NCBI GenBank assembly: GCA_913009335.1
Contig: CAJVXN010000006.1
Span: forward strand, 562-64,561
Reading direction: 5' to 3'
Length of the DNA: 64,000 bases
Source: an uncultured bacterium
GTDB taxonomy: Bacteria > Omnitrophota > Gorgyraeia > Ghiorseimicrobiales > Ghiorseimicrobiaceae
Part shown: in pieces, positions 3,343 through 52,734 of the stretch
How positions within the stretch are numbered: position 1 is the first letter of the stretch
Layout of the letters: each line of letters opens with the position of its first letter
Position numbers and translations under genes: made by a program
Notes under the pieces: generated by a model
What the model saw: the letters and a program-made list of their open reading frames with translations, nothing else
Database searches by the model: none
What the model was told of the DNA's origin: nothing

Positions 3343-9423
<6,081 letters not shown>

Positions 9424-12946: not shown

Positions 12947-13090
12947 AAACATGTTGCTATTTTAAGCTAAAGTCGGGATTTAGGCAATAGAAACCTTAAA
13001 ATTTTTTACCTAGATTTTGTAAAGCAAAATCTACCCGCCTGTGCCGATAGAATTATGCATATAAATCTATTGGTATTGGCCGATTGATTA

Positions 13091-13136
13091 GACCCATCCG
13101 CTAAAGGTATCAGGATGGTCTATCCCTGTGGATTAA
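13091..13136. repeat. REP-like hairpin element (GACCCATCC...GGATGGTC TATCCCTGTGGAT)
   Basis: Same family at 17779-17826, 31578-31612 and 52681-52734. Confidence 0.6.
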
Positions 13137-13317
13137 ATCTGAAAGATTTAATCATGCTATCGGGGTACCTATTCGGTAAAAACACCAATTTTTACTTGCT
13201 TTTTTACTTATAACACGGTAAACTTAAAGCATTGTGAATTCTGCTGTTCTGTCAAGCTATAAAGCATTATAATGCTAGTGAGATAGTGATTTTCAATTAA
13301 CAAGAAATGGAGAGATT

Positions 13318-14400
13318 GTGAAGCATAAGGTTACTTTTATTCCTGGTGATGGCATAGGGCCAGAAGTTGCGAGTGCGGCAAAAGCCTGTATTGAAGCAAC
13401 GGGAGTTGATATTGAATGGGAAGAGGTAATTTGCGGTGAGGCCGCACTTAAAGATTTTTCAACACCCTTGCCTGAAGAAGCGCTCAATTCCATACGAAAG
13501 AACAAGGTGGCGATTAAAGGTCCGATTACAACTCCTGTAGGCAGCGGGTTTCGTTCGGTTAATGTAGGTATACGTCAGGCATTGGATCTTTATGCTTGTC
13601 TTCGGCCGGCAAAGTATTATGAGGGCGTACAAAGCAGGTATAAGGATATTGACCTGGTGGTTGTTCGGGAAAATACAGAAGATTTATATGCCGGTATAGA
13701 ATTTGAAGAAGGAAAGGACCAGACTCTAGGGCTCATTGAAGAAATCAATAAAATGAGTACCCGTAAGATAAAAAAAGATTCAGGTGTTAGCATTAAGCCG
13801 ATATCGCGCTCTGCTTCAGAAAAAATTGTACGCTTCGCGTTTGAGTATGCTTTAAAAAACAATAGGCGTAAGGTTACCTGTGTTCATAAAGCAAATATTA
13901 TGAAGTTTTCCGATGGATTATTTCTTTCTTGCGCGCGCAGCGTAGCGAAAGAGTACGAGGGAAAGATTGAATTTAATGATACGATAGTTGATAATTTATC
14001 TATGCAGTTAGTCAAAGTTCCGCATAATTTTGATGTTTTAGTTCTTCCGAATTTGTATGGCGATATAATTTCTGATCTTTGCGCCGGGTTAGTCGGTGGA
14101 TTAGGTATGGCTCCGGGCGCGAATATCGGCGATGGAATAGCTGTGTTTGAACCCGTTCATGGATCTGCCCCGAAATATAAAGGGAAAAATAAGGTCAATC
14201 CTACCGCTACTATTCTCTCGGGAGTATTGATGCTTAAGTATTTAAAGGAGATTGATGCGGCAGAGCGCTTGAGAATGGCAGTTGCGGAGGTTATAAAAGA
14301 AGGCATTTCTGTGACTTATGATTTTAAAGAAGATAGAGATGATCCTTCTGCTGTAGGCACACGGGAAATGTGTGAAGCCATCATTAAAAAAATGGAATAA
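13318..14400 (+). CDS. icd: Isocitrate dehydrogenase (isocitrate/isopropylmalate dehydrogenase family)
   Basis: TFIPGDGIGPEV; AIKGPITTPVG...RSVNV...LDLYACLRP; NLYGDIISDLCAGLVGGLG. Confidence 0.7.
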   Translation: MKHKVTFIPGDGIGPEVASAAKACIEATGVDIEWEEVICGEAALKDFSTPLPEEALNSIRKNKVAIKGPITTPVGSGFRSVNVGIRQALDLYACLRPAKYYEGVQSRYKDIDLVVVRENTEDLYAGIEFEEGKDQTLGLIEEINKMSTRKIKKDSGVSIKPISRSASEKIVRFAFEYALKNNRRKVTCVHKANIMKFSDGLFLSCARSVAKEYEGKIEFNDTIVDNLSMQLVKVPHNFDVLVLPNLYGDIISDLCAGLVGGLGMAPGANIGDGIAVFEPVHGSAPKYKGKNKVNPTATILSGVLMLKYLKEIDAAERLRMAVAEVIKEGISVTYDFKEDRDDPSAVGTREMCEAIIKKME

Positions 14401-14404
14401 GATT

Positions 14405-14555
14405 TACCCCGATAGTAAAACACTGTCCCTGAGAAATTCACCCTCTGGAATTTCAGAGAAATTCCGAGGACTTAGTCCCGGGAATCCGAAGGATTCCACG
14501 GGGAAAGAATTTCCAGGACTAAAATCCCTGAAATCGCAACGCGATTTCTAGGGGG
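14405..14555. repeat. Intergenic repeat block built from GAAATTC/GGAATTTC modules (related to 29826-29895 and 33040-33165)
   Basis: Shared segments GTCCCGGGAATCC and CGGGGAAAGAATTTC. Confidence 0.5.
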
Positions 14556-14650
14556 AAAATTTATTCCAAATTTTTTTGTAACTATCGGGATCAATTCAGC
14601 CAAATAACTTATACCACCTTACAGGTTCTATAAGTTACGGCTTCATTGAA
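14556..14650 (+). promoter_or_regulatory. Conserved ~95-nt leader (copy 1) upstream of histidine kinase gene
   Basis: ~85% identical to 40329-40423. Nested stems ATAACTTAT/ATAAGTTA with inner stem ACCT/AGGT (copy 2 has AGCC/GGCT). Confidence 0.5.
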
Positions 14651-16660
14651 ATGAAAGATTTTTTCCAGAATAATCTAGATATCGTATTTTTCATCTATGG
14701 GTTTTCTTTTATTGTTATGGGTCTTGCTATTATCATGCAGACCCGTCGGGGCTCTTCATTTAAAATTGCGGATATTTTATGGTTATTGGGAACATTCGGC
14801 TTGCTTCACGGTGCTAATGAATGGTTGCATATGTGGGTAATCATAAAACGCGCCCAGGAAGTTTTTATTTTATTTGATATATTGCACTGGGCCATACTTA
14901 CGGCATCTTTTTGCTTTTTATTTGAATTCGGCAGGAGATTACTTGCATTGTCGAAAGGCAATAAGAAATATTCAGCGTATTTATCGATTTGGACCTTGGT
15001 TGTTTTAGTATCAATGTCTGTGATACTCGGAATCTTTGGTAGAAATTTTTGGCAGACAAGCAGCATTTGGGTTCGTTACTTGATAGGATTCCCCGGCGGG
15101 GTGCTCGTAGCTTTAGGGTTTGTTAGTTATTTTAATAACGATATAAAACCAACTTTACCGGGGTTAAAGAGAGATTTTTATTCTGCAGCAGTATTTATTT
15201 TTGTCTATAGCTTACTTAGCGGGTTAGTTAGTTCGCCGGCTGCATTTTTCCCCGCCTCTTTGATTAACACAAAAGTATTTATGAAAGTAACTTACGGAAT
15301 ACCCGTTCAGGTGTTCCGTGCATTTTTTGCGGCAGCAGCGACAATATCTATAGGCAGGATTCTTATGATGTTTCGATGGGAAACAATCAAAAATTTATGT
15401 GCCGTCGAAACAGAGAAATTTACCGATAAGATTACTTCTTCCATTGATGAAATGATTATGGTACTCGATAGCGATTTTCGTATAAAGTGGGCTAATAAGA
15501 GATTGAAAGAAGCATATGGCCCTTATGTTAAAGGCAGGCATTGCTATGAGGTTACGCATCATCTGGATAAGCCCTGTCATCTGCCGAATGACGCCTGTCC
15601 GATTGAGGATGTAAGAAGGACCAATAAACCCAAAAGCGTAATACATACACACTTTGATAAAAATAATAAACCGATTTACGCGGAGGTGTATGCTTGTCCG
15701 TTATTAGATGAGGACGGAAAACCAACCGGTGATTTTATACATACAAGCCGTAATGTTACAGATAGAACCAAGGCTCAGAAGGAGCTTGAGGAAGCCTATA
15801 CAGAATTAAAGGCAATCCAGGAGAAATTGTTATCTGCCGAGAAAATGGCTTCTTTGGGTAAACTTTCTGCCGGAATTGCCCACGAGATAAACAACCCCAT
15901 TGGCTATGTCATTAGTAATTTATCAAGCTTGGAAAAATATATTACCAATCTGTTGCCAATGTTTAGTAAGTATTCAGAGTTAGAAGAGGTTATAGCCAAT
16001 AACGCTAAAGCAGAAGCTGAAAAATTACTCATACAGATTAAAAATACTAAAAAAGAAATTGATTTTAACTATTTACTTAAGGATTTACCCGGATTAATTA
16101 AGGAAACTCTTGACGGCGCGGAGCGTGTAGTGCGAATAATCCGCGATTTAAAGAGTTTTGCCCGTAAAGATGAAATCGAGTTAACAGAAATCGATATTAA
16201 TGAGTTAATCGAAAGCGCATTGAATATTGTCTGGAATGAGGTAAAATATAAGACAGATGTGAGTAAAGAGTATGGTGAGCTTCCAAAAATACCTTGTCAT
16301 CCACAGCAGATAACGCAGGCAGTTATGAATATTTTGGTAAATGCGGCCCAGTCAATAGAAGAAAAAGGCACTATCGCTATAAAAACTTATACAGAGAATG
16401 CTAAAGTTTATATAGAAATACAGGATAGCGGAGGCGGCATGAGCGAGGAAACACGGAAAATGATCTTTGAGCCGTTTTTTACAACTAAGCCGGTTGGTGA
16501 GGGAACAGGTTTAGGATTAGCAATTGTTTACGGTATTATCCAGAAACATAAGGGAACTATTGAGGTTAAGAGCACAGAAGGTAAAGGTTCAATTTTTATA
16601 GTCGCTCTACCTATTGCCGCGCCAAAGGGAGTAACAGTTATAAAGGATGCGCAAAAATAG
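14651..16660 (+). CDS. Membrane sensor histidine kinase (multi-TM + Cys-rich PAS-like + HisKA + HATPase_c)
   Basis: TM helices; [21 protein letters not shown]; H-box [16 protein letters not shown]; G-boxes GGGMSEE and [11 protein letters not shown]. Confidence 0.85.
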
Positions 16661-17441: not shown

Positions 17442-17792
17442 ATGAACCGCGCAAAAGAACGACGTAAATATCGAAGGTTTAGAGTTGCGTTGCCGATTGA
17501 TTGCAGCGGAATACAATTTTTTCAGGCACGGGATTCTCAAAATCTAAGCGAGGGTGGAATATTTATCCAAACAAAGCTAATTGAGAAACTAGGAGTGAAA
17601 GTTGAGATAGTATTTATTTTTAAGGAAGATTGGGAAACAATCAAGGTTTTCGGTGAGGTGGCGTGGACGGGAAAAATTAACGATGAGCAGGATAGCAGGA
17701 TATCTTCTTCCGGTATGGGAATAAGATTTATCGACCCACCTGATGATTTTACTAAAAGAATTAAGCGTTTATATTTAAGACCCCTCCTTTAA
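17442..17792 (+). CDS. PilZ-domain c-di-GMP-binding protein
   Basis: RRKYRRFRV (RxxxR) and NLSEGGIFI (D/NxSxxG). Confidence 0.6.
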   Translation: MNRAKERRKYRRFRVALPIDCSGIQFFQARDSQNLSEGGIFIQTKLIEKLGVKVEIVFIFKEDWETIKVFGEVAWTGKINDEQDSRISSSGMGIRFIDPPDDFTKRIKRLYLRPLL

Positions 17793-17826
17793 GGGCAACA
17801 GGAGGGTCTATCCCTGTGGATAAAAT
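17779..17826. repeat. REP-like hairpin element (GACCCCTCC...GGAGGGTC TATCCCTGTGGAT)
   Basis: Stem shows compensatory change relative to the 13091 copy (CATCC/GGATG versus CCTCC/GGAGG). Confidence 0.6.
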
Positions 17827-29700: not shown

Positions 29701-29774
29701 GGGCCCATAGCTCAGTCGGTTAGAGCAGTTGACTCATAATCAATTGGTCCGGGGTTCGAGTCCCTGTGGGCCCA
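29701..29774 (+). tRNA. tRNA-Met (anticodon CAT; elongator type or tRNA-Ile2)
   Basis: Cloverleaf: acceptor GGGCCCA/TGGGCCC, anticodon loop CTCATAA, T-loop TTCGAGT; G1-C72 paired, so not an initiator. Confidence 0.85.
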
Positions 29775-29825: not shown

Positions 29826-29895
29826 GACCAAAAAGGGGTGTGGGGAAAGAATTTCCCCATGCTTTTAGGGTGACAGCGACAAACCTAAGTGAGTC
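29826..29895. repeat. Repeat AAAGGGGTGTGGGG...GAAAGAATTTCCCCATGCTTTTAGGGTGACAGCGACAAAC (also at 33044-33165)
   Basis: Direct sequence match between the two tRNA-downstream regions. Confidence 0.6.
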
Positions 29896-31573: not shown

Positions 31574-31611
31574 TAAAGACCCATCCCTTTAAAGGTAGAG
31601 GATGGTCTATC

Positions 31612-32637
31612 TTGCAGATTAATATGAATAATATTATTTTAAAAGCTGAAAAATTACGAAAACGTCTGGATAGCGGTTTTTCTCTTGAGATTAGCAATTT
31701 ATGTTTTAAAAAAGGACAGATTTATGGATTGGTTGGTCCCAACGGAGCAGGAAAAACAACACTATTAAATATTTTAAGTCTTTTGGATAGGCCCTCTAAT
31801 GGAGAGATTTTCTTTAAAAACGAGCGTATTAGTAAGCCAAATTTATTAACAACGCGTCGAAAGATACATATGATTACGGAAAATCCCTTTCTATTTTCCG
31901 GGACAGTTTTTGATAATATCGTCTCCGGCCTCAGGTTTCGTCGTATAAGCCCAAAAAAGTGGCAGGGTTTAGTAGATAAGGCGTTAGAGGTAGTAGGGCT
32001 TGAAAACTTTAATCACAGGAACATAAGGAAGTTATCTGTAGGGGAATCTCAGCGCGTAGCACTTGCTAGAGCAATAGTTTTAAATCCGGAAATTCTTTTT
32101 CTGGATGAGCCGTTTGTAAATCTCGACCGACAGAGTATTTGTTTAATCGAAGAGTATATTCGTACCATACAAAAGAGCAATCAAACAACGATAATTTTTA
32201 CGACTCATGATTTTTATCAGGCATGGCACCTATCGAATCAAGTCATTTCATTGGTTAATGGTAGAATTGTCGAGGCACCGCTTGATAATTTTTTTGCTGG
32301 TTCTCCGGAAGAAGAGAATGGGTCATGCTTTGTGCGAATCTCAAAAAATATCCGTATTGCAATATCACAAAAAATTGATAATAGATGTAATATTTGCGTC
32401 CATCCTGAAGGTATAGTTATTTCGAAGCAAGAGTTTGATTCAAGTGCGCGTAATTCATTCAAAGGTGTGATTAAGTCTATCCATGCTGAAGATGGAATTG
32501 TCAGGGTAACTATAAGAATAGACCCATCTATTGAGCTGACAACTTTAATCACAGTCAGATCATATCGAGCTTTAAAGCTAGCTATTGATTCAGAGGTATT
32601 TGCGGTTTTTAAGGCCACCTCGGTAATAATATTTTAG
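31612..32637 (+). CDS. tupC: ABC transporter ATP-binding protein with C-terminal TOBE domain (TupC-like); likely ATG start at 31624
   Basis: Walker A GPNGAGKTT, signature LSVGESQR, Walker B ILFLDEP, C-terminal TOBE-like domain. Confidence 0.75.
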   Translation: MQINMNNIILKAEKLRKRLDSGFSLEISNLCFKKGQIYGLVGPNGAGKTTLLNILSLLDRPSNGEIFFKNERISKPNLLTTRRKIHMITENPFLFSGTVFDNIVSGLRFRRISPKKWQGLVDKALEVVGLENFNHRNIRKLSVGESQRVALARAIVLNPEILFLDEPFVNLDRQSICLIEEYIRTIQKSNQTTIIFTTHDFYQAWHLSNQVISLVNGRIVEAPLDNFFAGSPEEENGSCFVRISKNIRIAISQKIDNRCNICVHPEGIVISKQEFDSSARNSFKGVIKSIHAEDGIVRVTIRIDPSIELTTLITVRSYRALKLAIDSEVFAVFKATSVIIF

Positions 32638-32904: not shown

Positions 32905-32978
32905 GGGCGCATAGCTCAGTTGGTTAGAGCATTTGCATCACACGCAAAGGGTCGAGGGTTCAAGTCCTTCTGCGCCCA
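32905..32978 (+). tRNA. tRNA-Val (anticodon CAC)
   Basis: Acceptor GGGCGCA/TGCGCCC, anticodon stem TTTGC/GCAAA with loop ATCACAC, T-loop TTCAAGT. Confidence 0.85.
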
Positions 32979-33043: not shown

Positions 33044-33165
33044 GGGGTGTGGGGCACCCAGAAATTTCAAAGAAATTTCGGGTACTGTAGTCCCGGAAAT
33101 CCTTTAGGATTTCTCGGGGAAAGAATTTCTCCATGCTTTTAGGGTGACAGTGACGAACATAAACG
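33044..33165. repeat. Repeat AAAGGGGTGTGGGG...GAAATTTC modules...CCATGCTTTTAGGGTGACAGTGACGAAC
   Basis: Matches 29826-29895 and shares GAAATTC modules with 14405-14555. Confidence 0.6.
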
Positions 33166-34359: not shown

Positions 34360-34716
34360 AGATAAAAGGCAAGATGGCTACTCTTAGCGTAATTACGCTA
34401 AGAGAGGAAAGTCCGGGCTCCGGCAAGGCAACGTATCTCGATAATTTCGAGACATCCGCCTTAGGGTGGATAGGATAAGAGCCACAGAGACGAGTCTCCG
34501 TGTTTTTACGCGGAGGGTGAAACGCGGCAATCTCTACGTGGAGCAAGGTCATAAAGGAGGCGAGTCCGCCACAAACATTGGCGAGACAGGAACCAGCCTG
34601 GTTCGTTTGAGTCTCGGGTCGACTGCTTAAGATCCTGTAGCAATACGGGGTTAAAGATGAATGGTCATCATACCTGCCTGGCGACAGACAGGAACAAAAC
34701 CCGGCTTACCTTAAAT
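34360..34716 (+). ncRNA. rnpB: RNase P RNA (bacterial type A)
   Basis: GAGGAAAGTCCGGGCTCC (P4 5' strand) and ACAGGAACAAAACCCGGCTTAC (P4 3' strand); GGTGAAAC-type loops; 5' and 3' ends can pair (P1). Confidence 0.8.
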
Positions 34717-40278: not shown

Positions 40279-40328
40279 ACATGAATATAAATGTAGTCTA
40301 ACGAAGTACTCCAATAGTAAAGCGCTGG

Positions 40329-40423
40329 AAAATTTATTCTAAATTTTCTTGCAACTATCGGAGTCAATTCGACCAAATAACTTATTTCAGCCTTCGGCTT
40401 CCATAAGTTATGGTCTCATTGAA
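40329..40423 (+). promoter_or_regulatory. Conserved ~95-nt leader (copy 2) upstream of the DAHP synthase gene
   Basis: ~85% identical to 14556-14650, with compensatory changes in the inner stem. Confidence 0.5.
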
Positions 40424-41440
40424 ATGATTATTGTTTTAAAATCTACTGCGACAAAAGCACAAATTGACCACATTAAAGAGCGAGTAACAAAATTAGGCCT
40501 AACGCCTCTTGTCTCAAAAGGAACCGAACGTACGATTATCGGCGTAATCGGCCCTGAGGATGTATTGCGCATTACCCCTCTGGAAGTTTTCCCTGGTGTT
40601 GAAAAAGTAATGTCTGTTTTACCGCCGTATAAATTAGCTTCTCGTGAATTTAAAAAAGAAGGTTCTGTTATAAAGATCTCGGATAAGCTTTCAATTGGCG
40701 CAAAACAAATTGTTGTTATGGCGGGCCCGTGCTCAATAGAAAATTTTGATACGGTTTATGAAATAGCAAAATCCGTGCATGGCTCAGGTGCAGCAGTTTT
40801 ACGCGGCGGAGCCTTTAAGCCTCGAACATCCCCGTATAGTTTTCAGGGTTTGGGGGAAGAAGGGTTAAAGCATTTAAGCCGCGCTGCGGGCGATTTTGGG
40901 CTGGCAACAGTAACAGAAGTTATGGATACGCGCGATGTTGCGTTAGTTGCCAAATATGCCGATATTTTACAAATCGGTGCCCGTAATATGCAGAATTTTA
41001 ATTTACTAAAAGAAGTAGGCTTAACAAAAAAACCGGTGATGCTAAAACGCGGCTTATCTTCCACGATAAAAGATTTACTAATGAGCGCGGAATATATTTT
41101 ATCTCAGGGGAATCTTAATGTAATCTTATGCGAGAGAGGCATAAGAACGTTTGAAGACTATTCACGTAATACACTGGATATTACAGCAGTTCCGGCGGTT
41201 AAAGAATTATCTCATCTACCCATAGTCATTGATCCTTCGCATGCAGCCGGAAAATGGGGCTTGGTTTCTTCTTTATCTAAGGCGGGTATTGCTGCCGGAT
41301 GTGACGGGCTTATAATTGAGGTACATTCTCACCCGGAAGACGCATTTTCTGATGGCGCGCAATCGCTTCTTCCTGAAAAATTTTCAAAATTAATGAAAGA
41401 ACTAAAGCCTCTGGCGAAGGTATTAGGAAAAGAAATATAA
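40349..41440 (+). CDS. aroF: 3-deoxy-7-phosphoheptulonate (DAHP) synthase with N-terminal regulatory domain; likely true start is the ATG at 40424
   Basis: MIIVLKSTATKAQIDHIKE (ACT/ferredoxin-like N-domain); VMAGPCSIEN; LRGGAFKPRTSPYSFQG. Confidence 0.8.
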   Translation: MQLSESIRPNNLFQPSASISYGLIEMIIVLKSTATKAQIDHIKERVTKLGLTPLVSKGTERTIIGVIGPEDVLRITPLEVFPGVEKVMSVLPPYKLASREFKKEGSVIKISDKLSIGAKQIVVMAGPCSIENFDTVYEIAKSVHGSGAAVLRGGAFKPRTSPYSFQGLGEEGLKHLSRAAGDFGLATVTEVMDTRDVALVAKYADILQIGARNMQNFNLLKEVGLTKKPVMLKRGLSSTIKDLLMSAEYILSQGNLNVILCERGIRTFEDYSRNTLDITAVPAVKELSHLPIVIDPSHAAGKWGLVSSLSKAGIAAGCDGLIIEVHSHPEDAFSDGAQSLLPEKFSKLMKELKPLAKVLGKEI

Positions 41441-45812: not shown

Positions 45813-46391
45813 GTGAATTTTGCGAACAAAGTTTCGATTTTTCGTATTATAACTATTCCTTTTTTTCTGTCGATAGTTCTATATTATAGCCCTCAAAGAG
45901 ACTTTTTACGCTTTGTAGCTTTGGGGGTTTTCCTTTTAGCTGCCCTCTCTGATTTTATTGATGGATATATTGCCAGAGTAAAGGGTCAAAAAACTAAATT
46001 TGGCTCAATCATTGACCCCTTAGCTGATAAGCTGCTACTAATAACTTCATTTATTTGTTTATACACAAAAAATAATATTCACCCGGAGGCATTGCTTCCT
46101 TTGTGGGTAATATTAACTATTATAAGCCGTGATGTTATTATCTTGCTGGGAGCTATAATAATATATTTGTTGAAACAAGATCTAAATATTAATCCTTCGG
46201 CTTTTGGAAAATTCACTACTTTCTCGCAGATGGGCACCATAATTGCCTTTTTACTCAGGCTGGATTTCGTAAATATTATCTGGAACATCGCGGTCGTTTT
46301 TACGATTATTTCCGGCATTGATTACTTACGCAAAGGTGTATTAATTTTAAATACGATTGATGTTAAAGCTAATCCTAGGAATAATCAGTAG
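45813..46391 (+). CDS. pgsA: CDP-alcohol phosphatidyltransferase (phosphatidylglycerophosphate synthase-like)
   Basis: DFIDGYIARVKGQKTKFGSIIDPLADK. Confidence 0.75.
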   Translation: MNFANKVSIFRIITIPFFLSIVLYYSPQRDFLRFVALGVFLLAALSDFIDGYIARVKGQKTKFGSIIDPLADKLLLITSFICLYTKNNIHPEALLPLWVILTIISRDVIILLGAIIIYLLKQDLNINPSAFGKFTTFSQMGTIIAFLLRLDFVNIIWNIAVVFTIISGIDYLRKGVLILNTIDVKANPRNNQ

Positions 46392-47040
46392 TTATCTTAT
46401 TGGCGCTATTCCTTTTGCTTATTTATTTGGTAGAATCTGTAAAGGAATCGATATTCGTAAATATGGTTCCGGAAATGTGGGTGCGACAAATGCCTTCCGT
46501 GTCCTAGGCCCTATCTTGGGTATTGCCGCCTTATTGTGCGATATTAGTAAAGGTTTCATCTGTCCTACTTTAATCGCCAATTACGCCGTAAACACCATAG
46601 ATTCCTCTTGGGTCTTAAGTTTTCGTATTTTATTAGGTGTATCTGCGGTGTGTGGTCATAATTGGACCCTCTTTTTACGCTTTAAAGGAGGCAAGGGGGT
46701 TGCCACAAGTCTGGGAGTCATTATTGGCCTGGCAATTATCATAGCACCCTTAAGAATAATTATACTCTTAACTCTTGTTTCCTGGGTACTTATCTTTCTA
46801 GGCACGGGTTTTGTTTCTCTTGCTTCGATTAGTGCTGCATGTTTATTCCCCATCCTTAACATAACTTTCAACACCCCAAAAGAATTACTTGCTTTGAGTC
46901 TGGGATTATGTCTATTTATAATCTTAAGGCATAAGTCTAATATTTACAGATTGTTACACAAGCAAGAGAGTCGATTTTACCCCTTAAAATCCCTTAAAAC
47001 CCGCTTATTAGCCGGATGGCGATGGTTTGGCAACCTATAG
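46357..47040 (+). CDS. plsY: Glycerol-3-phosphate acyltransferase PlsY
   Basis: IGAIPFAYLFG...YGSGNVGATNAFRVLG. Confidence 0.85.
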   Translation: MMLKLILGIISSYLIGAIPFAYLFGRICKGIDIRKYGSGNVGATNAFRVLGPILGIAALLCDISKGFICPTLIANYAVNTIDSSWVLSFRILLGVSAVCGHNWTLFLRFKGGKGVATSLGVIIGLAIIIAPLRIIILLTLVSWVLIFLGTGFVSLASISAACLFPILNITFNTPKELLALSLGLCLFIILRHKSNIYRLLHKQESRFYPLKSLKTRLLAGWRWFGNL

Positions 47041-47042
47041 CC

Positions 47043-47140
47043 AAAGCCATTAAGTTAGCGGACAATGGTTTGGCTTCCGATAGACAAAGCTATTAAGTCA
47101 GCGGACAATGGTTTGGCTTCCGATAGACAAAGCCATTTAA
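47043..47140. repeat. ~43-bp tandem repeat, ~2.3 copies (AAAGCYATTAAGTYAGCGGACAATGGTTTGGCTTCCGATAGAC), beginning in the plsY 3' end
   Basis: Direct tandem copies visible at 47043-47085 and 47086-47128, with a partial third copy. Confidence 0.7.
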
Positions 47141-47372
47141 AGGTTAATTTACCTTTTTAATCATTATCTTATCTATCCCCTTAAGGCATGTCTACTAGGA
47201 AGAGTAAGCTGAAAGCGCTTTCATAATACTCCTTAATACGGTTGAATACTCATTCTCACATGTTATACTTCTAAAGGAAACAAAAATAATACCCCACCAG
47301 CCATGGAGGTATATGGTCGGGCCGGTCACGTGTTTATAGGCACAGCCCGGCCTTACATTTACGGAGAAAACA

Positions 47373-51750: not shown

Positions 51751-51794
51751 CCTTTTTTGTTTAAGATAATACAATATGGTTATTACAGGTTCTA

Positions 51795-52043
51795 AGAATA
51801 AGATTAAAACGGGAAGCGCCTGAAATTGGCGTACGGTCCCGCCGCTGTAACCGGTAGCGAAAATCTATATAGACGCCACTGCCTGATCAAATCAGGCGGG
51901 AAGGCAAGATGAGTAGAGAGCCGGAAGTCAGAAGACCTGCCTGTAAAATTGCGTAGAGAAGCAAAGATAAATCTACGCCCTCGTGGATAGGGATTAAAAA
52001 AAGCTGGGTGCAATCCCTTTGATGTTTATCAAAGGGATTTTTT
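51795..52043 (+). promoter_or_regulatory. Cobalamin (AdoCbl) riboswitch with terminator expression platform
   Basis: GGGAAGCGCCTGAAATTGGCG...GCTGTAACC...B12-box GCCACTG at 51874-51880. Terminator ATCCCTTTGAT-GTTT-ATCAAAGGGAT plus T7 at 52011-52043, immediately before cobC. Confidence 0.75.
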
Positions 52044-52638: not shown

Positions 52639-52680
52639 CTTTTAATGGTGTAAAAAATATACCCTTACGGGTAAAGGTAA

Positions 52681-52734
52681 GATCTCACCTTTAAAGGCAT
52701 CAGGAAGGTCTATCCTTTTTGGATAAAACATTTT
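52681..52734. repeat. REP-like hairpin element (…CACCTTTAAAGGCATCAGGAAGGTCTATCCTTTTGGATAAAAC)
   Basis: Family match to 13091, 17779 and 31578. Confidence 0.5.

Follow-up and report, generated by a model that had tools for sequence, protein, structure and literature searches.

What links a sensor-kinase gene and a DAHP synthase gene that carry the same structured sequence directly in front of their start codons? Both lie in a 64,000-nt stretch of Omnitrophota DNA (hereafter the window), for which a first-pass annotation had described a shared leader of ~95 nt, read as a cis-acting RNA element such as an attenuator or as a promoter-carrying repeat. The two genes are:

14651..16660, + strand: PAS-HisKA-HATPase sensor kinase gene (Pfam), downstream neighbor of one insertion
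40424..41440, + strand: DAHP synthase gene, aroF-type (FXD + DAHP_synth_1)

The kinase gene follows a leuB-like gene (Iso_dh) and precedes genes for a response regulator and a PilZ protein; an exact-sequence look-up of the kinase protein from this start gave no record. The aroF gene follows a class I/II aminotransferase gene and precedes genes for prephenate dehydrogenase, cmk and lepA. As had been suspected, aroF starts at ATG 40424 and not at TTG 40349, since the product read from ATG 40424 has the Pfam FXD domain from its first residue on. Among the matches listed, 118 of 120 homologues of this DAHP synthase are 338 aa long (the others are 339 and 334 aa), and homologue P0001 is 100% identical to it over 338 aa.

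The two window copies share a two-domain fold

A gapless alignment of 14554-14654 with 40327-40427 gave 82% identity over 101 nt (within-window blastn, E = 4.8e-24). Over the ~95 nt described earlier, the similarity is real and the identity is 77/95 (81%), slightly under the ~85% claimed. We found no third copy in the 64-kb window by word search, repeat finder or covariance model. The similarity is longer than first described, with an extra 24-nt 5' arm (14401-14424 vs 40303-40326) that is split from the remainder in the kinase copy by a block of ~129 nt (~14425-14553). Both window copies are "singlets" of ~120 nt, made of a domain A and a domain B, with the following parts:

14401..14424, + strand: kinase copy, 5' arm of domain A (GATTTACCCCGATAGTAAAACACT), aligning with 40303-40326
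14425..14553 (boundaries +/- ~3 nt), no strand assigned: nested block, second repeat family, missing from the aroF copy
14554..14590, + strand: kinase copy, AT-rich inner hairpin (GGAAAATTT/AAATTTTT) and 3' arm of domain A
14591..14650, + strand: kinase copy, four-helix hairpin of domain B (cmsearch 77 bits, E = 3.6e-19)
40279..40302, + strand: spacer from the aminotransferase stop to the element
40303..40363, + strand: aroF copy, domain A (from the fold)
40364..40423, + strand: aroF copy, hairpin of domain B (cmsearch 79 bits, E = 9e-20)

In the aroF copy, domain A runs from an outer helix ACTCC...GGAGT through TAG/CTA to the inner hairpin GGAAAATTT/AAATTTTC. In the kinase copy, the 5' arm sits directly 3' of the TAA stop (14398-14400) of the Iso_dh gene and pairs with CTATCGGGA at 14582-14590 in a fold computed without the nested insert. 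The nested stem-loop with compensatory changes that had been seen in domain B is present in both copies, and the pairing reaches further out, to four helices in total. P1 (TCAAT/ATTGA) and P3 (ATAACTTAT/ATAAGTTA) are the same in both copies; P2 is AGCC/GGCT in the kinase copy and GACC/GGTC in the aroF copy, P4 is ACCT/AGGT and AGCC/GGCT, respectively, and both sides have changed at four pairs. The predicted folding energies are -20 to -21 kcal/mol (z = -3.9 to -4.9 against dinucleotide shuffles). Both copies end with CATTGAA|ATG, and the foot of the hairpin lies 1 nt 5' of the start codon.

Both copies are insertions at gene-gene junctions

The aroF junction is empty in five relatives (L004, L005, L072, L073 and L074; DAHP synthase 78-80% identical), whose aminotransferase-aroF spacers measure 8-94 nt; the element at this site is common only to the sister locus L002/L003 (aroF 90% identical). 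The spacer at 40279-40302 holds GTCTAAC, the context of the aminotransferase stop codon in L004, and is the same in L002 except for a 6-nt indel. The kinase junction is empty in L006, a sister from the same metagenome, and in the more distant L007 and L008; in these three loci the Iso_dh stop and the kinase start abut or overlap, with the orthologue starting 0-2 nt past the upstream stop. Since relatives have empty junctions, both window copies are insertions, from two separate events, and the comparison shows that each fills what was once a stop-start junction within a co-directional gene run. Placed at gene-gene junctions, the copies are intercistronic rather than leaders behind a promoter.

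The identical CATTGAA before the ATG at both sites, despite differing ancestral spacers, indicates that the 3' strand of P1 belongs to the element; for the same reason we rejected, for the window copies, an origin of this strand from the target. Comparing filled and empty sites revealed neither terminal inverted repeats (TIRs) nor target-site duplications (TSDs) at either window site. The kinase copy appears younger than the aroF copy, as the sister lacks it, and it is just 82% identical to the aroF copy though seemingly later, so its source copy must lie outside the sample.

A Shine-Dalgarno (SD) sequence is found in four of the five element-free aroF spacers (e.g. GCGAGGAAAAGATG, GCGGAGGAGATTAATG; the 8-nt spacer of L004 has none), and ahead of aroF the element has displaced a spacer that bore an SD. 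However, only 16-22 of 60 crude window genes have an SD-like 4-mer upstream (9% background), making starts without SD ordinary in this genome and the displaced ancestral SD not special in itself. On these counts we rejected the loss of SD as a mark of special translation control. A leader peptide was rejected too, because the mini-ORF ATGGTCTCATTGAAATGA is present in the aroF copy alone and the kinase copy reads ACG. Across the window, 59 of the 60 crude genes lie on the + strand with very short spacers.

Domain B defines a family with four covarying helices

By scanning one genome per species with the pattern CCAAATAACTTAT-N12-20-ATAAGTT, we retrieved 58 loci, 29 of which (from 23 assemblies, labeled Omnitrophota for 19 and Planctomycetales/Planctomycetia for 4) display the full flanking signature AATTCRG-CCAAATAACTTATG-(variable stem-loop)-CCATAAGTTATGG-YYTCAYT, with a second hairpin 5' of it. 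Pattern loci without the signature look like chance. In three gammaproteobacterial MAGs (L037, L061 and L063; Oleispira/Thalassolituus), the pattern matched a hairpin CCAAATAACTTATC...GATAAGTT directly 3' of a tRNA gene; lacking the family signature, it is probably an unrelated conserved terminator-like hairpin.

A covariance model and an Rfam scan had both been proposed with the first-pass annotation. Our model (R1) gave 54 non-redundant copies of the 58-nt domain B in 336 kb from 23 other assemblies, tandem and inverted partners included, and bears out the claim that the similarity is not due to chance. No Rfam family was recovered: Rfam 15 gave no match at gathering score in the window, and just noise at E <= 5 for both copies. 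Copies number 1-3 per MAG by exact pattern (just one in contigs of 1.2 and 1.6 Mb) and at most 6 per assembly by covariance model, and the window has 2 in 64 kb. Viral contigs gave no match to the element, and a metagenome scan with the window-type pattern of domain A gave five chance matches, none of them followed by domain B.

Across 31 sequences, the four-helix structure is 94% paired, and 10 pairs show double-sided changes (71 cells), which was reached by 0 of 500 shuffles. Pair 2-59 of P1 occurs as AU (17), UA (7), CG (5) and GC (1), and pair 8-53 of P2 as GC (18) and AU (12). P3 covaries in copies that the search pattern did not constrain (ATAACTTATG/CATAAGTTAT, ATAATTTATG/CATAAATTAT, ATAACTTACG/CGTAAGTTAT and ATAAGTTATG/CATAACTTAT), and all four helices covary across the family. 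Unpaired bases are also kept at fixed positions, namely the internal loops TC/TC, an AA bulge and GTY/TCC.

Selected RNA helices usually contain many G·U pairs. However, among 1163 paired cells we counted 1072 Watson-Crick, 12 G·U and 15 A·C, that is ~1% of G·U, no commoner than A·C. Since an A·C on one strand is a G·U on the other, these counts show no strand asymmetry, and together with the rarity of G·U this weakens the step from covariation to a cis-acting RNA. Such figures would fit complementarity kept at the DNA level, or a hairpin needed whichever strand is transcribed, and neither case is that of a classical one-strand RNA element.

Copies build mosaics with other modules

The domain A architecture of the window copies, which has 5 bp in its outer helix, 3 bp in the next and an AT-rich stem innermost, was found in six other assemblies (L047, L065, L060, L021, L014 and L023), with compensation at 10 of 17 pairs; the inner hairpin of L047, GAAAATTTATTCTAAATTTTC, is near-identical to the window type. 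With the covariance model we detected tandem copies of domain B in L060, L064, L065 and L027. In seven loci (L012, L045, L047, L048, L051, L053 and L059) an inverted partner lies 24-127 nt upstream, forming a B'-A-B doublet, of which the window copies lack the left half. The module orders seen are A-B, B'-A-B, B'-A1-A2-B (L047), tandem A-B (L027, L060) and, in the window kinase copy, an A with a foreign module inside it. Copies may also cluster. In L065, three of them (8-65, 382-441 and 2329-2388) lie within 2.4 kb, each ~10 nt before the start codon of a NIL-domain gene, thi4 or a nifU-like gene, and in L064 copies occupy both sides of greA (7195-7254 and 7796-7853).

At positions 5514-5922 of L027, three copies of domain B adjoin a tRNA-Arg(tcg) gene. 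Two A-B units stand in tandem there, and an identical 17-nt remnant, TTTGCGCGCCCGTAGCT, which combines the old leader with nt 1-12 of the tRNA, comes after each of them. This arrangement suggests an insertion at the 5' end of the tRNA with a 12-17 nt duplication that would have restored the gene, and it is the sole hint of target duplication in the family.

The foreign module of the kinase copy (14425-14553) contains three or four short perfect hairpins with triloops (fold -58 kcal/mol). Its 84% identity to a second site makes it a member of a second repeat family:

33063..33129, + strand: second copy of the hairpin-cluster repeat (blastn 84%, 67 nt, E = 3e-13)

This second copy lies 3' of the tRNA gene at 32905-32978 (fold z = -3.1). 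Units of this family, at 14425-14553, 33063-33129 and 29842-29888, consist of perfect 7-8 bp hairpins with triloops (GGAATTTC-AGA-GAAATTCC, GGGAATCC-GAA-GGATTCC and GGGGAAA-GAA-TTTCCCC), and the latter two sites are just 3' of the two tRNA genes of the window (29701-29774 and 32905-32978). The window also contains a four-copy repeat (13090-13138, 17778-17826, 31577-31625 and 52680-52728), always at gene ends or intergenic, with a hairpin AGACCCATCC...GGATGGTCT followed by ATCCCTGTGGAT and weak fold z values (-0.3 to -1.6). Other features are three tandem units of 43 nt at 47022-47150, close to where ORF 46357-47040 ends (the other units are 86% and 63% identical to the first), and a cobalamin riboswitch at 51770-51958.

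Copies adjoin unrelated genes in both orientations and interrupt RNase P RNA

The copies adjoin unrelated housekeeping genes, including rpsG, rplJ, rplK, rimP, hisI, ilvN, argB, aroQ, gltD, dnaJ, lptB, lptF/G, a ddl-like gene, thi4, greA and a nifU-like gene. By crude gene calls, 17 are oriented forward and 17 in reverse relative to their neighbors, while 3 are convergent and 1 is divergent. All copies are intergenic or within an RNA gene, and we saw no in-frame insertion into a protein-coding gene among them. Whichever way a copy points, its domain B meets the gene boundary with the TCAYTNA end: in the forward case a start codon follows 0-15 nt past this end, and in the reverse case the stop of the reverse-strand gene lies within TCAYTTA (TAARTGA on the other strand).

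In two loci an A+B element lies, in sense orientation, inside the RNase P RNA (L011, 2542-3042; L055, 1344-1911), which spans 501 and 568 nt, respectively, over positions 1-367 of the Rfam RNase P class A model. The A+B insert, of 115 nt, occupies the P18 position and directly precedes the 3' strand of P4, ACAGAACUCGGCUUA. The rnpB gene of the window (34366-34716) is uninterrupted, with 351 nt and a simple GCGA-capped hairpin at the P18 position. L011 and L055 come from divergent species, with flanks 50-65% identical, domain B ~93% identical and a different domain A.

Many copies in unrelated contexts is the outcome that the first-pass annotation had set against its own regulatory reading, and it is what we found, with 54 copies of domain B and copies inside rnpB. 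A cis-regulatory leader or attenuator dedicated to the kinase and aroF is not supported, as copies lie beside unrelated genes, half of them point the opposite way and the window copies are intercistronic. The element is not an aroF- or kinase-specific regulator.

Inserted copies are conserved above neighboring synonymous sites

Between the window and L002, the aroF intergenic region is identical at 136 of 139 positions, with 98% conservation of domain B, whereas the flanking genes are 81-85% identical at the DNA level and 59-64% at four-fold sites. Three differences at most would arise with a probability of 3e-7 under the coding rate and of 9e-23 under the four-fold rate. An independent pair, L017 and L022, shares a copy at hisI; here the element aligns over 123 columns with 3 mismatches, and hisI itself is 83% identical in DNA and 41% at four-fold sites. 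Since orthologous copies are 97-98% identical vs 41-64% at four-fold sites, the inserted copies are under purifying selection. At greater divergence (L012 vs L054, same site), domain B was kept, P4 had changed by compensation and domain A was replaced. From a purely selfish, decaying repeat one would not expect 97-98% identity across entire intergenic regions; inserted copies are constrained, and the element may thus have a primary function for the host.

Searches for promoters, terminators and mobilizing genes

We scanned five regions (both window copies, L012, L048 and L065) for promoters. No sigma-70-like promoter was found inside either window copy, with the reservation that the sigma-70 consensus used may not be that of Omnitrophota. 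Promoter-like matches were no more frequent than in shuffles, and none in these regions pointed at the gene downstream of the element. A TTGACA-N17/18-TATAGA motif spotted by eye in domain A of L012 and L048 failed the same scan. Of the promoter-carrying repeat that had been proposed, the repeat holds and the promoter finds no support in these scans. Intrinsic terminators combine a GC-rich hairpin with a following U tract. No terminator-like site was found within the element on either strand; the window hairpin is followed by CATTGAAATG, with no U tract, and two terminator-like matches on the - strand fall in the nested block 14425-14553. No SD is available to be sequestered at the window copies.

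A T-box and the known self-cleaving ribozymes were rejected for want of core motifs and of Rfam matches. Integron attC sites carry R''/L''...L'/R' boxes (RYYYAAC...GTTRRRY) and follow cassette ORFs in a single orientation, with an integron integrase nearby; we rejected them since the core motifs are missing from the consensus, both orientations occur and the flanks are syntenic housekeeping genes. For an IS200-type Y1 transposase, phmmer gave no match in 276 kb of family loci, a weak test because its seed was an approximate one. The genes flanked by copies are greA, thi4 and the NIL-domain gene.

The family resembles several known repeats and equals none

REPs, REPIN doublets with RAYT transposases and BIMEs are described in Enterobacteria and Pseudomonas (PMC3116915, PMC3337134). 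REPs are single stems of 20-40 nt with a 5' GTAG or GTGG, in tens to hundreds of copies per genome; in a REPIN the inverted doublet is the replicating unit, and the RAYT is a single-copy Y1 (HUH) gene, typically flanked by repeats (PMC3116915, PMC3337134). Like REPs, the copies described here are extragenic imperfect palindromes that form hairpins between genes in either orientation, persist at orthologous sites and encode no transposase within the element. Singlets coexist with inverted doublets around a spacer (the seven B'-A-B loci), as for REPINs, and mosaic combinations with other modules, variable in order, number and orientation, recall BIMEs. Unlike in REPs, the hairpin is 58 nt long with four helices and conserved internal loops, the consensus reads (T/C)AAATTCRGCCAAATAACTTATG... 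without a 5' GTAG, no RAYT was found (276 kb, approximate seed) and the copies seem to number units to tens, not hundreds. Also unlike in REPs, many species of a phylum-level group have the sequence in conserved form, and one site is inside an RNA gene.

BOX of Streptococcus pneumoniae and ERIC/IRU of enterobacteria are either modular (boxA-B-C) or long imperfect palindromes, of ~100-130 nt. The family shares with them this build, its place in transcribed intergenic regions of operons, both orientations, stable predicted folds and the lack of a known transposase, but it has no known sequence similarity to them and joins a conserved four-helix hairpin to a second hairpin of variable sequence. 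To our knowledge, the flush placement between stop and start and the strong conservation between orthologs go beyond what is described for BOX/ERIC. Rickettsia palindromic elements (RPEs) and the intervening sequences (IVSs) of rRNA are palindromic inserts tolerated in functional genes, the latter being excised from the mature RNA. The P18 insertions in RNase P RNA (L011, L055) resemble both in affecting a structural RNA gene, while the in-frame insertion into protein genes known from RPEs was not seen here. MITEs, with the Correia elements of Neisseria as an example, have TIRs and TSDs. The family is comparable to Correia elements in length (~100-150 nt), in insertion polymorphism between close relatives and in its position near gene starts with possible effects on expression; unlike in MITEs, the window copies lack TIR and TSD, and no parent IS with matching ends was found. 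Finally, cis-regulatory leaders hold a fixed sense orientation 5' of functionally coherent genes and have an expression platform. In contrast to riboswitches, attenuators and T-box leaders, the copies are split 17 forward vs 17 reverse among unrelated neighbors, with neither terminator nor SD. A literature search returned no description of REPs, MITEs or other small dispersed repeats in Omnitrophota.

Origin and possible use of the element

We consider it likely that the element is a mosaic mobile repeat of an Omnitrophota clade, of the kind of REP, BIME, BOX and RPE, and that it has probably been co-opted locally. This reading draws together what the genome comparisons show: insertion polymorphism, a multi-helix hairpin, dispersal across species in both orientations, modularity, tolerance inside an RNA gene and, as judged from substitution patterns, purifying selection. 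Against it stand the failure of phmmer to find a mobilizing gene in 276 kb, the lack of TSD and TIR at the window sites, the low-looking copy number, the 97-98% identity of entire intergenic regions, the unsampled source that the kinase copy calls for and the metagenome scan, in which the window subtype was missing. A putative trans-acting enzyme, encoded elsewhere in the genome, would recognize the hairpin and copy it at the DNA level, which would explain the strict Watson-Crick pairing, the independence of orientation and the conserved unpaired bases. Copies would then survive just where a hairpin is tolerated, that is in a stop-start gap or in a helix at the periphery of a structural RNA. 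After its insertion, an element would be co-transcribed with its operon and could become locally useful, most plausibly as an intercistronic structure, for instance one that sets where mRNAs end or what surrounds the neighboring start codon. Such local co-option would account for the purifying selection.

The strength of that selection over whole intergenic regions, in two independent species pairs, also speaks for a domesticated RNA module, in which domain B would be an RNA-level signal for recognition or processing, by an RNase or an RNA-binding protein for example, that insulates or processes cistrons in long co-directional operons, with mobile spread being secondary. The unpaired bases conserved at fixed positions, the sense-strand copies inside RNase P RNA kept between two divergent species and the many copies 0-15 nt from a start codon point in the same direction. 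However, both orientations relative to transcription are equally common, and a G·U share of ~1% among paired cells, on a par with A·C, is atypical of selected RNA helices. We therefore see the RNA module as a possible but tentative alternative, which overlaps with the last step of the mobile-repeat reading. That the element carries a promoter transcribing aroF and the kinase independently of the upstream genes is unlikely. The forward copies directly upstream of genes and the conservation of the whole intergenic region would suit such a role, and with 59 of 60 crude genes on one strand and tiny spacers, internal promoters must exist somewhere; but the scans gave no sigma-70-like match inside the window copies (on a consensus that may not be that of Omnitrophota) and nothing above shuffles, half of the copies do not point at a downstream gene and the element also occurs inside rnpB.

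The remaining alternative, a leader specific to the kinase and aroF that would regulate them together (as an attenuator, a riboswitch or a binding site for a protein or an sRNA), could claim a covarying structured element immediately 5' of both start codons and its high conservation at aroF in the sister species. We regard it as very improbable, since the element is missing before the kinase gene of the sister and from one of the two junctions in eight relatives, neighbors elsewhere are functionally unrelated with half of the copies reversed, no terminator or SD-sequestering platform is present and Rfam gave no match even at E <= 5.

Returning to the mobile repeat with local co-option, a more specific proposal, which we think doubtful, is that domain B is a phylum-specific module that is recognized by a dedicated trans-acting factor, copied as DNA and domesticated as a general intercistronic mark or processor of cistron boundaries in the long single-strand gene arrays of these small genomes, and that is tolerated or used in RNase P RNA. 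If this is true, domain B would be a mobile and selectable unit of RNA/DNA structure rather than junk.

For annotators, shared upstream sequences of this kind should not be read as regulons, and the repeat family leads to misplaced starts, as with TTG 40349 for aroF. Much is known about small dispersed repeats of Proteobacteria and Firmicutes, and Omnitrophota is a large uncultured phylum of very small cells. The family is unusual in that a large multi-helix hairpin is conserved across many species, is wedged exactly between stop and start codons and also into the gene of an essential ribozyme, has taken the place of an SD-bearing spacer before aroF and, once inserted, is conserved far above neighboring synonymous sites. 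It thus offers a case in which to ask by what route selfish hairpin repeats come to serve their host, and which enzyme moves them.
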